Of a DNA stretch of 64,000 bases, positions 6,453 through 42,089 are shown in pieces. Position 1 is the stretch's first letter. Each line of letters opens with the position of its first letter. Source of the DNA: an uncultured Eudoraea sp. (GTDB taxonomy: Bacteria > Bacteroidota > Bacteroidia > Flavobacteriales > Flavobacteriaceae); NCBI RefSeq assembly GCF_947258925.1, contig NZ_CAMYKG010000013.1, forward strand, positions 44,313 through 108,312, in the 5' to 3' direction. A model generated the notes under the pieces. The model was given only the letters and a program-made list of their open reading frames with translations, had not been told where the DNA came from and made no database searches. The position numbers and the translations under genes were made by a program.

Positions 6453-7720
6453 CTTTCCTGTGAGTTATGTTTGTCATAAATCAATTTTCCATCCTTAAAA
6501 ACCATACAAGGTTTAAAAGCCCCCTGATTATAGAGCACTTCATTATAGTTAGTGGTATGAAATAAACTAAAATCAGCAAGAAAACCCGCTTTTAATTGAC
6601 CCCTGTCGCTTAATTTCAGTGCCGCTGCTGCGCGGTAGGTAATTCCTGCCAATACTTCCGCATTTGTCAATTTTTCCATCGTACCCAGGACAGCCGACTG
6701 CGTAAGCAGGTCGCCCATGGGTGCAGAACCAGGATTGTGATCACTGGCGATAGCCAAAGCACAACCGGCATCCAGAATTTTCCTGGCAGGAGTAAAATCA
6801 CAACCTAAACCCAATGAAGCCCCCGGTAGGGCTGTGGCTATCACATTACTTTTACCCAACAATTCTATTTCATGGGCAGAGCTGGCCTCCAAATGATCGG
6901 CGCTTACAGCCTTAAATTTAACGGCAACCTCACTACCCCCAACTGAGAACTGATCTGCATGTATGGTGATGTCAAAACCCATTTCAACTGCCCTGGAAAG
7001 GTACGGTGAGATTTCTGTTGGACTAAATGCCCCGGATTCAATAAAAGCATCAATCCGGTTTGTCAATTTCTCTTTAACCAGAATTGGAAAAAGCTGTTCA
7101 CTAATTTCAGTCAGATATGCTGTCTTATCCCCTGTAAAATCCTTTGGGTGCATATGAGCTGCCAAACAGGTGGAAACAAAATTCAATGGAAATTGTTCAC
7201 CGGCTTCCTTAATGGCCCGTAACATTTTAAGTTCTTCTTCTACAGTTAGGCCGTAACCACTTTTTACTTCTATGGTGGTAACCCCATTTTTAAGATGCTG
7301 TTTAGCCCTTTTGAGAATGCCTTTAATGAGTTCTTTTTGGGAAGCTTTTCTGGTCTGAATTACCGTATCCCATATACCGCCGCCTTCTGCTGCAATTTGT
7401 AAATAGGTTTTACCGGCATTTCTCATAGCATAATCCCTGGCCCTGGATCCGCCAAAACATATATGCGTATGAGAATCCACAAATCCGGGCATGCAAATAT
7501 GATTACCTTCTAACCGAATCATATGAACATTCAGATTTTCTACCTCGGATAGGAGTTTCTTATAAACATCAACTTTTTTGACAAGTCCATCAGCATAAAG
7601 AATTCCACCATTTTCAATGATATGAAGCTTATCATCAGAGAGGGGACCTTTTAACGACATTCCTGTCATGGGGATTATCTGGCTTAGTGGTCCTATAAGA
7701 GTTAGCTGTTCCATATTCAT
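6449..7720 (-). CDS. hutI: imidazolonepropionase
   Basis: 423-aa amidohydrolase with DSHTHICFGG and HADQF motifs. Overlaps the hutU start by 4 nt. Confidence 0.92.
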   Translation of the reverse strand: MNMEQLTLIGPLSQIIPMTGMSLKGPLSDDKLHIIENGGILYADGLVKKVDVYKKLLSEVENLNVHMIRLEGNHICMPGFVDSHTHICFGGSRARDYAMRNAGKTYLQIAAEGGGIWDTVIQTRKASQKELIKGILKRAKQHLKNGVTTIEVKSGYGLTVEEELKMLRAIKEAGEQFPLNFVSTCLAAHMHPKDFTGDKTAYLTEISEQLFPILVKEKLTNRIDAFIESGAFSPTEISPYLSRAVEMGFDITIHADQFSVGGSEVAVKFKAVSADHLEASSAHEIELLGKSNVIATALPGASLGLGCDFTPARKILDAGCALAIASDHNPGSAPMGDLLTQSAVLGTMEKLTNAEVLAGITYRAAAALKLSDRGQLKAGFLADFSLFHTTNYNEVLYNQGAFKPCMVFKDGKLIYDKHNSQER

Positions 7721-9300
7721 TAAAAGTTTTCAAACTCTTCTGAAAAAGTTGTTTGTAAGGAAAGGTTTTTTCGTTCACAAACCTGGTTTATACAATCTAT
7801 TATGGTTTGGTTTCTTACCATTGCTATCCCTTGCTCAATATCATCTGCAAAAACCCTGTCCTTTTTGGCGAACGCCACTTTTTCACGAACTTTCTTATGA
7901 ACTTCATCAAGGAGTATTCCGGATTTCAGGGGTTTTCTATATTCAAATGCCTGGGTGGCGGTTAGCAATTCAATAGCTAATATTTTTTCCAGATTGTCCA
8001 GGACCTTTAAAGCTTTTCTTGCTCCGATAGACCCCATACTTACATGGTCTTCCTGACCCATTGAAGTAGGAATACTGTCTGCACTGGAAGGGAAACAAAG
8101 CCCCTTGTTTTCACTTGCCAAAGCCGCTGTGGTATATTGGAGGATCATGTACCCCGAGTTTATCCCTGTATCTTCCATGAGCAACTCAGGCACCCCGGGA
8201 CTATTGCCTTCCAGTGCCAGGTAAATACGCCTGTCTGAAATATTGCCAAGCTCTGAAGCGGCCAAACATGCATAGTCCAAAGCCATTGCAAGAGGTTGCC
8301 CATGAAAATTACCCCCACTAATGGTTAGCTCTTCATCAATTATAATGGGATTATCTGTTACGGCATTGAGCTCTATCAGCAGCAATTCCTTGAGGTGTAG
8401 CCAAGAATTTCTTGAAGCACCGTGTACCTGCGGAATACAACGGAGGGAATAAGGATCCTGCACTCGTTCACAATCAATATGATTTTCCATTATTTCAGAA
8501 CCTTTAAGGAGTAACTTTACCCTTTCGGCTACATGAATATTTCCTTTAAACGGCCTCAGATTGTGTAATTCCTTGTAAAATGGTTTGATTGAACCTTGCA
8601 AGCCTTCAATCATCATGGCCCCAATAATATCTGCATGTGAAAGGCAATTGTGTAATTTTTCCAAGACCTTAATGGCATGTGCAGTTATAAATTGTGTGCC
8701 ATTGATTAGGGCTAATCCCTCTTTGGGACCAAGTTCCAGTGGTTTCAGTCCGGTTATTTTAAATAATTCTTTGGTGTCAATTTTTTTATTTTCAAACAGC
8801 ACTTTGCCATAACCAATGAGCGGTAAAAAAAGATGAGCGAGGGGAGCTAAGTCACCTGAGGCGCCAACCGAACCTTGTGAGGGCACAACAGGGATAGCAT
8901 CATTTTCTATATGCCAAATTATTCTTTCCAAAGTTTCTTCTGCAATACCAGAAAACCCTTTGGCCAGAGAATGGATTTTCAAGATCAGCATCAGTTTTGC
9001 TATTTCAGCTGCTATTGGCTTTCCAACACCTACACTATGACTCTTCAGGATGTTCGTTTGTAGTATTTTTGTTTCTTCTTTGGAAATATTTGTGGTACAT
9101 AAAGGGCCAAATCCGGTATTGATCCCATAAACGGCTTCTCCATTTTCAACGATTTTTTCAACGGTAAGCTTGCTTTTACGAACCCTTTTTCGGGCAGTAT
9201 CTGATAGTTTTCCATGAATTGCCCCTTTTGCAATAGCCAGAGCGATACTGCTACTTAGTTCTTCTTCGCCATACAGAAATGTATGAGTTGATGAAACCAT
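7720..9300 (-). CDS. hutH: histidine ammonia-lyase
   Basis: 526-aa ORF containing GSVGASGDLAPLAHL, the Ala-Ser-Gly MIO cofactor-forming triad. First gene of the hut operon. Confidence 0.95.
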   Translation of the reverse strand: MVSSTHTFLYGEEELSSSIALAIAKGAIHGKLSDTARKRVRKSKLTVEKIVENGEAVYGINTGFGPLCTTNISKEETKILQTNILKSHSVGVGKPIAAEIAKLMLILKIHSLAKGFSGIAEETLERIIWHIENDAIPVVPSQGSVGASGDLAPLAHLFLPLIGYGKVLFENKKIDTKELFKITGLKPLELGPKEGLALINGTQFITAHAIKVLEKLHNCLSHADIIGAMMIEGLQGSIKPFYKELHNLRPFKGNIHVAERVKLLLKGSEIMENHIDCERVQDPYSLRCIPQVHGASRNSWLHLKELLLIELNAVTDNPIIIDEELTISGGNFHGQPLAMALDYACLAASELGNISDRRIYLALEGNSPGVPELLMEDTGINSGYMILQYTTAALASENKGLCFPSSADSIPTSMGQEDHVSMGSIGARKALKVLDNLEKILAIELLTATQAFEYRKPLKSGILLDEVHKKVREKVAFAKKDRVFADDIEQGIAMVRNQTIIDCINQVCERKNLSLQTTFSEEFENF

Positions 9301-22677: not shown

Positions 22678-22685
22678 TATATTTG
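22678..22685 (+). promoter_or_regulatory. candidate -7 promoter box (TATATTTG) for the tRNA-Leu locus
   Basis: Exact TAnnTTTG match about 40 nt upstream of the first tRNA-like segment. Confidence 0.35.
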
Positions 22686-22723
22686 CAACCCCAGAATAAC
22701 AATAAGTTATTGACACGGGATTT

Positions 22724-22803
22724 GCAGGCGTGGTGGTCCCGTCCCGATAACTATCGGGAGTTATCGGGAGGTAGACACGATAGACTTAAGGTCTGGTTCT
22801 GCA
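22724..22803 (+). pseudogene. tRNA-Leu-like 5' fragment (acceptor 5' strand, D arm with 34-nt palindromic insert, anticodon arm reading TAA; no variable or T arm)
   Basis: GCAGGCGTGGTGG and GTAGACACGaTAGACTTA are near-identical to the 5' half of the tRNA-Leu at 22822. The D-loop AATTG is replaced by TCCCGTCCCGATAACTATCGGGAGTTATCGGGAG (22737-22770). The copy ends ...GGTCTGGTTCTGC with no T arm. Confidence 0.55.
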
Positions 22804-22821
22804 TTTTGAAAAATAGTTTTT

Positions 22822-22925
22822 GCAGGCGTGGTGGAATTGGTAGACACGCTAGACTTAGGATCTAGTGCCGAAAGGTGTGAGAGTTCGAGTCTCTCCGCCT
22901 GAGAGTTCGAGTCTCTCCGCCTGTA
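22822..22925 (+). tRNA. tRNA-Leu (anticodon TAG) carrying an internal 22-nt tandem duplication of the T arm and 3' acceptor strand
   Basis: Manual fold: GCAGGCG / D arm GTG-GAATTGGTAGA-CAC / anticodon stem CTAGA-CTTAGGA-TCTAG / variable arm TGCCGAAAGGTGT / T arm GAGAG-TTCGAGT-CTCTC / CGCCTGT-A. The segment GAGAGTTCGAGTCTCTCCGCCT occurs twice in tandem, so the gene is 104 nt rather than about 82 nt. Confidence 0.75.
22879..22922 (+). repeat. perfect 22-bp tandem direct repeat (2 copies) of GAGAGTTCGAGTCTCTCCGCCT
   Basis: Copy 1 is 22879-22900 and copy 2 is 22901-22922. They are identical on direct reading. Confidence 0.95.
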
Positions 22926-22933
22926 CGATTATA

Positions 22934-22961
22934 AAAAACCTCCGATCTTCGGAGGTTTTTT
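22934..22961 (+). terminator. rho-independent terminator after tRNA-Leu
   Basis: Hairpin CCTCCGATCTTCGGAGG followed by T6. An A-run lies upstream. Confidence 0.7.
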
Positions 22962-22984
22962 CTTTTCAGGAAAGTTGATATTGC

Positions 22985-23035
22985 GGTGAGACGAGAAGTC
23001 TATCCCGCAATGGGCGGGAAGTCTCTCCGCCTGTA
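22985..23035 (+). repeat. tRNA-Leu 3'-end copy B (degenerate T-arm-like stem, inserted hairpin, and the 16-nt core AGTCTCTCCGCCTGTA)
   Basis: GGTGAGACGAGAAGTCTATCCCGCAATGGGCGGGAAGTCTCTCCGCCTGTA. The last 16 nt (19 nt counting the following CGA) match the tRNA 3' end and flank. Confidence 0.7.
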
Positions 23036-23044
23036 CGAAGTAAA

Positions 23045-23073
23045 GGCCCATTCATTATTGGATGGGCTTTTTT
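23045..23073 (+). terminator. rho-independent terminator after copy B
   Basis: Hairpin GCCCATTCATTATTGGATGGGC followed by T6. Confidence 0.7.
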
Positions 23074-23079
23074 ATTAAA

Positions 23080-23132
23080 GTGGAGAGGGGAGAAGTTTAT
23101 CCCGCCCACAGCGGGAAGTCTCTCCGCCTGTA
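23080..23132 (+). repeat. tRNA-Leu 3'-end copy C (same architecture as copy B)
   Basis: GTGGAGAGGGGAGAAGTTTATCCCGCCCACAGCGGGAAGTCTCTCCGCCTGTA. It is homologous to copy B over about 50 nt. The hairpin stem is conserved and the loop differs. Confidence 0.7.
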
Positions 23133-23139
23133 CAATTGG

Positions 23140-23169
23140 AAAGCCGACTTTTAGGAGTCGGCTTTTTTA
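23140..23169 (+). terminator. rho-independent terminator after copy C
   Basis: Hairpin AGCCGACTTTTAGGAGTCGGCT followed by T6. Confidence 0.75.
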
Positions 23170-23332
23170 TTTTGGGTAAACCGAAGGTAAAAAGATCTCT
23201 TTTTTAAGGATTATTGGAACGACCGCTTCCAGAGCTTTCGGGTTCTTAAGAAAGGCAATTTGGATTTAATACCCTCTTCCTATTCTTTAATAGTTGATTA
23301 AAACCATGCCTTTTTTTACTATAAAGGATATG

Positions 23333-41780: not shown

Positions 41781-41868
41781 AGAGAGGTGGCCGAGTGGTC
41801 GAAGGCGCACGCCTGGAAAGTGTGTATACACCAAAAGTGTATCGAGGGTTCGAATCCCTTCCTCTCTG
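41781..41868 (+). tRNA. tRNA-Ser (anticodon GGA)
   Basis: Manual cloverleaf: acceptor AGAGAGG/CCTCTCT, anticodon loop CTGGAAA, long variable arm TATACACCAAAAGTGTATC, T arm GAGGG-TTCGAAT-CCCTT. Confidence 0.9.
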
Positions 41869-42089
41869 CAATTGACGAATATTAAGTAGTCCGCTTGAGA
41901 TTAGAAGGAAGGTTTTTTTGCTACTGTTTATACGGAAATGTAAAATACATGAAAGCCCGCCTTCTATTAGTGCAAAGTTTTAATTTTTTAATTGTATTTT
42001 TTTTTTATCTTTAACCCTATTAACTAACTAAATTTAAGTTTGAAAGAAATGAAAAGATTATTCTCGATCCTGGGGGTTTCACCCAGGTT

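Follow-up and report, generated by a model that had tools for sequence, protein, structure and literature searches.

The window analysed here, a 64,000-nucleotide (nt) stretch of contig NZ_CAMYKG010000013.1 from an uncultured Eudoraea sp., contains a transfer RNA (tRNA) gene for leucine that is embedded in an array of tRNA-related units, all on the forward strand. As assembled here, tRNA-Leu(TAG) occupies 22822-22925, as defined by ARAGORN, the Rfam tRNA model and an alignment to three contigs from other assemblies of the same organism (L001-L003). The gene is preceded by a 5' pseudo-copy of itself (unit A, 22724-22803) and is followed in turn by terminator 1 (22933-22967), unit B (22983-23036), terminator 2 (23042-23075), unit C (23082-23133) and terminator 3 (23138-23171). 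An earlier note on this DNA had described unit A, the tRNA gene, an extra T-arm copy, units B and C, three copies of a 16-nt core and three terminators, and all of these features were recovered in place. The core, AGTCTCTCCGCCTGTA, occurs exactly at 22910, 23020 and 23117 and with two mismatches at 22888, whereas none is expected from a shuffled-sequence control. That the tRNA, B and C are each followed by a strong hairpin and T run is borne out by inverted repeats, a terminator scan and folding: terminator 1 begins with a perfect 13-nt inverted repeat (I4, 22933-22961), terminator 2 forms a 13-bp hairpin in the fold (AAAGGCCCATTCA...TGGATGGGCTTT), and terminator 3, found in the terminator scan, has a 13-pair stem that corresponds to the perfect inverted repeat I10 (23140-23165).

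Units B and C belong to one repeat family (D1) and are 83% identical (22985-23036 versus 23082-23133). In unit B, the 5' strand of an outer helix (P1) is formed by GAGAC at 22988-22992 and is extendable to 22983; the junction GAGAAGTCTAT (22993-23003), a hairpin (P2, 23004-23018) and AA follow, and 23021-23036 is a copy of tRNA positions 59-73 plus one base. Unit C has the same order, with the P1 5' strand at 23082-23089, the junction GAGAAGTTTAT at 23090-23100, P2 at 23101-23115, AA, and the tRNA 3' copy at 23118-23133. A covariance model (R1) built from 16 units recognizes unit B with 71.1 bits (E = 9e-16), in agreement with its alignment and consensus fold, and unit C with 73.2 bits (E = 2.5e-16). 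The previous description of both units as derived from tRNA-Leu is correct for their last 16-17 nt, but the remainder is a conserved module that is not of tRNA origin.

The ARAGORN and Infernal/Rfam runs that had been recommended call tRNA-Leu(TAG) at 22821-22904 and 22822-22903 (49.4 bits), respectively. In Rfam 15, the tRNA alone exceeds the gathering threshold and nothing over the units scores better than E = 0.03, so that no Rfam family was found for them; the same search of 10 metagenome loci returned tRNAs and chance matches in leaders only.

Unit A is delimited by repeat families D3 and D5, inverted repeat I7 and the fold. Positions 1-13 of the tRNA are reproduced identically at 22724-22736 (16 identical nt when counted over 22721-22736), a 33-nt hairpin (22737-22769) stands in place of the D-loop AATT, and 22770-22797 is 86% identical to tRNA positions 18-45 over 28 nt, covering the D arm and a diverged anticodon arm. 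TAA is found at the anticodon position, and the T arm is absent. Upstream of unit A, a promoter-like -7 box, TATATTTG, can be read at 22679-22686 of the forward strand, which we take to be a Bacteroidota-type -7 box of consensus TAnnTTTG; a sigma-70 promoter scan gave no match for it. If this box is used, unit A would lie within the leader of the tRNA precursor. The block TTGCTTTATATTTGCA recurs in related loci, either 5' of the tRNA or 5' of its 5' copy.

On one side, the neighbouring genes encode an M20 dipeptidase, a DUF4407 protein, YdjM and a MutS-like protein, and on the other side DctM/Q/P, an MFS transporter, KdtA and an aminotransferase. These 10 neighbours are housekeeping genes and none is a mobile-element gene, in keeping with the earlier statement that no integrase or other mobile gene flanks the locus. 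Within the window, the module is confined to B and C, apart from one near-match in a coding region. The only other tRNA gene of the window, tRNA-Ser(GGA) at 41781-41869, has no downstream unit and no upstream partial copy.

The extra T-arm copy is a perfect 22-nt tandem duplication (repeat family D4) within the tRNA gene, in which the T arm and acceptor 3' strand at 22878-22899 are repeated at 22900-22921. Contigs encoding the identical dipeptidase or DctM were taken from the ENA, Logan and JGI data sets for comparison. The duplication is absent from L001, L002 and L003, that is, from all three contigs that cover the tRNA and carry the identical flanking dipeptidase; these have a clean 82-nt tRNA gene that ends in ...CGCCTGTA with no encoded CCA. 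The earlier observation of an extra copy thus holds for this assembly and not for the other three, and because the copy is missing from three independent assemblies it is either strain-specific or an assembly error. It is private to this assembly and probably a separate event, either a real slip or an error. The duplication gives the first tRNA copy a G1-A72 mismatch and a discriminator G instead of A; if it is real, the tRNA-Leu(TAG) gene at this locus may be impaired in this strain.

The array itself is also present in the other assemblies, but the number and order of units differ. In one assembly, unit B carries the loop of C; a JGI contig has five units, in which the terminator 1-B and terminator 2-C cassettes are repeated and reordered; and a Logan assembly ends within the array. 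The array recurs in these assemblies as well as in Eudoraea adriatica DSM 19308 and another Eudoraea genome and is no artefact of a single clean tRNA-Leu gene, a possibility that the earlier note had raised; it is real, and it is unstable.

Scanning a genome collection with a 44-nt query from the 5' end of the tRNA yielded at least 120 species-level loci, nearly all from Flavobacteriaceae, and 98 of the listed loci had enough flanking sequence for prevalence counts. Among these matches, 14 of the 98 loci (approximately 14%) have a downstream unit or module motif, and 8 have an upstream 5' copy with the architecture of unit A, located 59-122 nt 5' of tRNA-Leu(TAG). Both occur together in 5 of the 98 loci (odds ratio 15, Fisher p = 0.0013). 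The closest arrays among the matches listed are those of E. adriatica DSM 19308 (L128), in which terminator 1 also follows both the tRNA and unit B, and of another uncultured Eudoraea (L112). In Maribacter, the unit is found in 2 of approximately 12 genomes. The consensus GGAGAGAC-GAGAAG-TTTAT-hairpin-(G)A-GTCTCTCCGCCTGTAC is shared by units of Olleya, Maribacter, Zobellia, Leeuwenhoekiella, Zeaxanthinibacter and Eudoraea, and GAGAAG is invariant in this alignment, which was not selected for it. Model R1 detects further copies, some of them degenerate, including decayed units that lack the core or the hairpin.

The module motif is strongly concentrated just 3' of the tRNA, with 25 matches within approximately 620 nt compared with 23 unrelated-looking matches in the remaining ~1.9 Mb on both strands. 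The suggestion that B and C might belong to a dispersed genome-wide repeat with no link to tRNA is thereby overturned, and the tRNA-specific reading put forward in the note stands: the units are tied to tRNA genes, and the cores are copies of tRNA 3' ends that begin in the T loop. In a metagenome-assembled genome of Eudoraea, where a unit follows tRNA-Leu(CAG), its tRNA copy matches the 3' end of that tRNA and not the 3' end of tRNA-Leu(TAG).

Two further repeats are seen in these loci. In some units (L039, L056, L057 and L167), a second hairpin, CCTGCC(G/T)GCAGGCAGG, is nested either within the GAGAA/GTTTAT junction or within the main hairpin's loop, and small palindromes appear to insert into units. 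In Sediminicola luteus (L036), an array of ~90-nt repeats (…CATTGCGAGG…GAGATTGCCGCGCT…CGCTCGCAATGAC…) lies after the tRNA terminator, approximately 130-480 nt downstream, and is unrelated to the module family.

A scan of metagenomes with a tRNA-independent pattern inside the module (GAGAAGTTTATCCYGAGCG) identified at least 120 contigs; this pattern biases the sample to one hairpin type. Among the matches listed, 94 units with a tRNA predicted by ARAGORN within 250 nt upstream are co-oriented with it and 1 is opposite. The units sit behind tRNAs of at least 26 anticodon species, with Trp, Thr, Leu, Asn, Met and Gln leading, mostly at a distance of 12-90 nt. When only units with a 5-bp outer helix are considered, 44 of the 57 listed have a tRNA no more than 800 nt upstream; of the other 13, the majority are found where a contig ends, several of them next to part of a tRNA, and no unit lies across an island. 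The hairpin is always followed by a copy of the 3' end of the neighbouring tRNA. Tandem arrays of 2-6 units are common, and the G+C range is 0.29-0.67. A terminator precedes 29 of 70 non-redundant units (41%), and none separates the tRNA from the unit in the remaining 41 (59%).

Only two cases, L169 and L195, were seen against the uniform orientation. In L169 (approximately 2140-2330, high G+C), the module is inverted relative to the tRNA fragment that it interrupts, and a tRNA with encoded CCA lies on the opposite strand. Partial 5' copies that mirror unit A are found before Pro, Leu, Trp, Gly and Arg tRNAs (L140, L147, L149, L174, L188 and L242) and, in L079, before tRNA-Leu(CAG); each copy has 13-21 nt from the acceptor and D region ahead of a TC...GA hairpin, and some copies are in tandem.

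The anatomy of the family was quantified with the 70 non-redundant units from the listed metagenome matches. Each unit has three parts, namely 5 nt complementary to tRNA positions 59-63, the module (GAGAAGTTTAT, hairpin and (G)A), and a copy of the tRNA from position 59 to the 3' end. The copy corresponds to the last 15-18 bases of the adjacent tRNA and sometimes includes the terminator. Identity to the tRNA begins 17-18 nt from the 3' end, at T-loop position 58/59, in 54 of the 70 units, and extends over CCA in genes that encode it. A module length of 31 nt is found in 46 of the 70.

With the pairing register of P1 fixed by the T loop of each tRNA, each of the 5 nt that precede GAGAAG is paired with its partner among positions 59-63 in most units (61, 64, 56, 58 and 49 of 64). 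In register, P1 is 90% paired, compared with 36-53% when the partner is slid by 1-3 nt, and pairs 6 and 7 are close to the slid-control level. The innermost pair is C-G in 49 units, G-C in 4 and T-A in 3, and the second is A-T in 38 and G-C in 20; together, these two pairs include 11 G.T and no A.C (p = 0.001). Because they use T-loop bases 59 and 60, which are unpaired in the tRNA, the helix is not inherited from the T arm. Moreover, the 5' strand equals the T-stem strand of the tRNA itself in only 5 of 65 units, and the unit is therefore not a duplicated T arm.

The hairpin covaries as well: one pair, whose partner base lies outside the search pattern, is T-A in 47 and C-G in 17 of 64 readable units, with no mismatch. 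Its apex is C-GNA-G, with all four bases occurring at N. Folding of the sense strand clearly matters, either as RNA or as single-stranded DNA. The hairpin CCTGAGCGAAGTCGAAGG also occurs alone within longer palindromes with no tRNA nearby, in a plasmid of the cyanobacterium Pseudanabaena galeata (L254, 301-320) and in an unannotated faecal contig (L253, 330-430). It may be a stable stem-loop that is widely reused without any connection to the tRNA-linked module.

Filled and empty versions of the same site can be compared directly in Maribacter. Relative to M. huludaoensis (L024), Maribacter sp. R86514 (L130) has 120 extra nt, which consist of 63 novel nt and an exact 57-nt duplicate that runs from position 59 through the terminator. 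The cassette of Zobellia uliginosa (L062) comes with a different terminator, and the old one is located after the unit. The hairpin of terminator 2 is common to cassettes behind tRNA-Leu(TAG) (L112) and tRNA-Leu(CAG) (L079) in Eudoraea. The direct repeats that flank the units are 16 to ~80 nt long.

These comparisons favour, at a little under an even chance, the view that units B and C are copies of an insertion cassette without genes, which interrupts the T loop between positions 58 and 59 and leaves the tRNA regenerated, with arrays reshuffled by recombination between cores. Each cassette consists of an optional terminator and linker, the 5-nt complement of positions 59-63, the junction GAGAAGTTTAT, and a stable hairpin followed by (G)A, and in the chromosome it lies between two direct copies of the tRNA 3' segment from position 59 to the 3' end. 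It would enter the gene at 58/59, and the gene would be made whole again by a copy that is either a target duplication or carried by the cassette. The 5-nt complement may act as a guide-like or structural partner of the target, and insertion would probably be catalysed in trans by an enzyme encoded elsewhere. The present order of tRNA, terminator 1, B, terminator 2, C and terminator 3 could have arisen from repeated insertion followed by recombination between identical 16-nt cores, with unit A as their related counterpart on the 5' side, found together with 3' units. That each unit has its own terminator is accounted for by cassettes that either duplicate a terminator or bring one.

Several points weigh against an insertion cassette. 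No enzyme has been identified and no insertion event has been observed directly; duplicated and cassette-borne terminators do not fit one simple mechanism; and it is unexplained how a cassette gains the right 5-nt complement and tRNA copy at a new tRNA species. The sample was chosen by a pattern within the module, which inflates the apparent conservation of the module, and the taxonomic range is established within Flavobacteriaceae, the remaining units being characterized by their G+C range only. The conserved sequence, the covarying helices, the sense-strand G.T pairs and the co-orientation would be equally expected of a functional RNA, and the 59% of units that have no terminator after the tRNA must be transcribed with it.

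The main alternative, considered possible though doubtful, is that the units act in cis as functional RNA domains within tRNA 3' trailers, in which two helices display a copy of the acceptor 3' strand. Such a domain might contribute to processing or stability, might serve as a decoy that diverts the enzymes or toxins recognizing tRNA 3' ends, or might be the partner of leader unit A in a bipartite tRNA-like helix, and arrays would then be by-products of unequal recombination. The covariation of both helices with a G.T to A.C ratio of 11:0 on the sense strand, the invariance of GAGAAG in the unselected alignment, the 94:1 co-orientation with the tRNA among the matches listed, the 41 of 70 units that are not separated from the tRNA by a terminator, and the tendency of 5' and 3' units to be found together (odds ratio 15, p = 0.0013) all agree with this view. 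RNase E of E. coli prefers RN/WUU, and the junction AAG/UUUAU fits this preference.

The units behind tRNA-Trp also speak for an RNA, as all 13 lie 9-147 nt upstream of a 62-64-amino-acid open reading frame, with no T run between, and two of these frames were identified as SecE by Pfam. In L135, L204, L221, L223 and others, the unit is located between tRNA-Trp and the secE start, at 9-27 nt before the ATG in several contigs. Since no terminator intervenes between tRNA-Trp, the unit and secE, the unit belongs to the tRNA-Trp/secE interval that precedes nusG.

However, a trailer RNA does not readily account for the 29 of 70 units, including B and C, that follow a strong terminator and lack their own promoter. 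The units are patchily distributed (approximately 14% of species at tRNA-Leu(TAG) and 2 of the Maribacter genomes), their copy number varies between near-identical strains, degenerate copies occur, and some duplications are exact, hence recent. No Rfam family matches them, and the C-GNA-G triloop of the apex is a motif noted for its stability in DNA. The alternative raised in the note, expressed small RNAs resembling tRNA fragments whose 3' units would pair with the 5' half, is conceivable: the sense-strand G.T pairs, the units within the tRNA-Trp/secE interval and the joint occurrence of 5' and 3' units speak for it, and the 41% of units behind a terminator speak against it. An insertion cassette and a functional trailer RNA are not mutually exclusive.

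A more specific mechanism, target-primed or guide-directed insertion by a bacterial analogue of the short interspersed nuclear elements (SINEs), is conceivable but unlikely. A non-autonomous element would be transcribed or unwound as a single strand, and its 3' end (positions 59-63, held in the 5-bp helix) would anneal in the T-loop region of a tRNA gene that carries a nick at 58/59; the element would then be copied in with a target duplication of variable length, and the tRNA would be regenerated automatically. This would explain why any tRNA can be targeted, why the helix is exactly 5 bp, why the copy starts at 59 and why the right-hand end of the duplication varies, and it predicts a trans-acting nickase with a polymerase or reverse transcriptase elsewhere in the genome. 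The units resemble the products of eukaryotic target-primed insertion, as of SINEs and long interspersed nuclear elements (LINEs), in their fixed first break, their variable-length target duplication and their nature as non-autonomous elements related to tRNA genes. They also resemble the 18-nt retroviral primer-binding site (tRNA 59-76), as the copied segment starts exactly at 59. In contrast to all of these, the units have no linked reverse transcriptase. In some units the copy extends into trailer and terminator sequence, which indicates that the source is the gene or a precursor and not the mature tRNA. We know of no SINE-like, tRNA-related element in bacteria.

Less probable still is that the array represents stacked att scars, either attR remnants or accretions resembling cis-mobilizable elements (CIMEs), of tyrosine-integrase islands that were later almost wholly deleted. 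Like classical tRNA att sites, the repeats begin in the T loop and stop shortly after the 3' end, and the cassette-borne terminators resemble tRNA ends supplied by islands. In addition, a tRNA-Leu(TAG) near-identical to the present one is directly followed by a tyrosine integrase in a 45-kb predicted provirus of IMG/VR (L008, IMGVR_UViG_2675903128_000002; tRNA and integrase at 7327-8687, the integrase having 416 amino acids with Phage_integrase and SAM-like domains), which indicates that a conventional integrating element, too, makes use of this tRNA end. No module-type unit is present beside that tRNA. The search for distant attR partners and integrases proposed in the note thus yielded this one integrase, but no islands and no homologue of it in other loci (tblastn, E < 1e-3, 6 kb downstream of the tRNA). 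Phage_integrase is not among the 25 Pfam families listed for the nearest downstream open reading frames of 87 related loci, and no integrase is encoded by the 10 genes around the present array.

The doubt already expressed about classical att scars was well placed, because no integrase is near and no unit with enough upstream sequence lies across an island: wherever that sequence suffices, the unit is no more than a few hundred nt from its tRNA, and no kilobase-scale foreign DNA separates the two. Scans of IMG/VR with the core and module returned one real tRNA-plus-integrase provirus (L008), the rest being chance-like and without a tRNA; the module itself was not found in IMG/VR, apart from one chance match, or in phage and plasmid collections, in which blastn with the whole locus and the consensus module found only tRNA or hairpin-like fragments in unrelated contexts. 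Furthermore, as one module is found behind 26 tRNA species, att scars would need many integrase specificities that share one arm. Three of the four defining features of classical island scars fail, as there is no integrase, no island and no element-specific arm, and this explanation is regarded as improbable.

It is hardly credible that a single tRNA-Leu gene was turned into the whole locus by errors of assembly or sequencing; the lack of the 22-nt duplication in three other assemblies and the break of one short-read assembly inside the array could be taken to favour it, but independent assemblies from ENA and JGI, as well as two further Eudoraea genomes, contain A, B, C and the terminators, members of the unit family occur in hundreds of contigs unrelated to one another, and for the array this reading is already refuted.

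Other candidates were set aside. A generic dispersed repeat of the repetitive extragenic palindromic (REP) type does not fit, as the motif clusters 3' of tRNA and only its hairpin part recurs elsewhere. For B, C and their relatives, a tRNA pseudogene formed by tandem duplication is contradicted by a T-stem 5' strand that is tRNA-like in only 5 of 65 units and by pairing past position 63 that is near the control; unit A does show homology to the tRNA body (positions 1-13 and 18-45). A duplicated T arm with a T-loop insertion fails because its 5' strand is not that of the tRNA itself. A self-cleaving ribozyme was rejected on the misfit of the hammerhead core and on the lack of a match in Rfam scans, which should include the known ribozyme families; a coding peptide, because compensatory changes argue for structure; and a CRISPR-like (clustered regularly interspaced short palindromic repeats) array or guide RNA of a nearby nuclease, because no cas or tnpB gene is present in the neighbourhood.

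Comparison with known systems reveals partial likenesses only. Islander-type att sites and CIME arrays share the direct repeat from the T loop to past the 3' end, the intact tRNA and the tandem stacking. In the units, however, the repeats are 12-120 nt apart and not kilobases, with no integrase or cargo between them, and a 31-nt module and a 5-nt target complement accompany every repeat at any tRNA species. The ends of IS200/IS605 insertion sequences, palindrome-associated transposable elements (PATEs) and REPs with their associated tyrosine transposases (RAYTs) are likewise small, gene-less, strand-specific and arranged in tandem, and their hairpin and the flank that pairs over 4-5 nt at the junction may have counterparts in the hairpin and 5-nt complement of the units, both of which covary. 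These elements make no target duplication and are dispersed genome-wide, whereas the units lie behind tRNAs between direct repeats of 16-80 nt, and their spacing between complement and hairpin differs from that of IS608. No transposase was identified for the units, and no genome-wide search for a Y1 transposase was made.

In integron attC arrays, short cassettes with imperfect folded sites similarly combine an outer helix, an asymmetric unpaired stretch and a variable hairpin, and the exchange point is at the start of the 3' strand of the outer helix. The units differ in that they have no GTTRRRY core (their junctions are GA/GTC, GA/GCC and similar), no intI in the neighbourhood and no attI, their cassettes hold only a terminator, and the anchor is a tRNA T loop. 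Among RNAs, the sponge from the 3' external transcribed spacer of leuZ (3'ETS-leuZ), the MALAT1-associated small cytoplasmic RNA (mascRNA) and the external guide sequences of RNase P are comparable in that the units lie in tRNA 3' trailers, and three-quarter external guide sequences in that a helix and an acceptor 3' strand are presented; unlike in these RNAs, an unrelated module stands where the T loop would be, a terminator precedes many of the units, and the units are known from sequence alone.

That tRNA fragments are left by integration is documented as a general issue (PMC9897764). No description of units of the present kind was found in the literature on tRNA fragments and integrases, motifs 3' of tRNAs, the NBU1 attN1 site, Bacteroidota RNA motifs, REP/RAYT systems or Bacteroides trailer small RNAs, and this small structured tRNA-linked element is apparently undescribed.

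Transfer RNA genes are classic landing sites for mobile DNA, and the only elements that we know to have been described at them bring their own integrase. If the units are mobile, a gene-less cassette of 50-120 nt found behind at least 26 tRNA species would represent a new and safe way to colonise essential genes and might be a compact, reprogrammable insertion system. If they are functional RNAs, they would be a widespread and unrecognised part of Bacteroidota tRNA operons, including the tRNA-Trp/secE-nusG junction. Either way, the units explain partial tRNA matches, assembly breaks and copy-number variation beside Flavobacteriaceae tRNA genes, and a covariance model for them is needed so that annotation pipelines stop calling them tRNA fragments or island scars.

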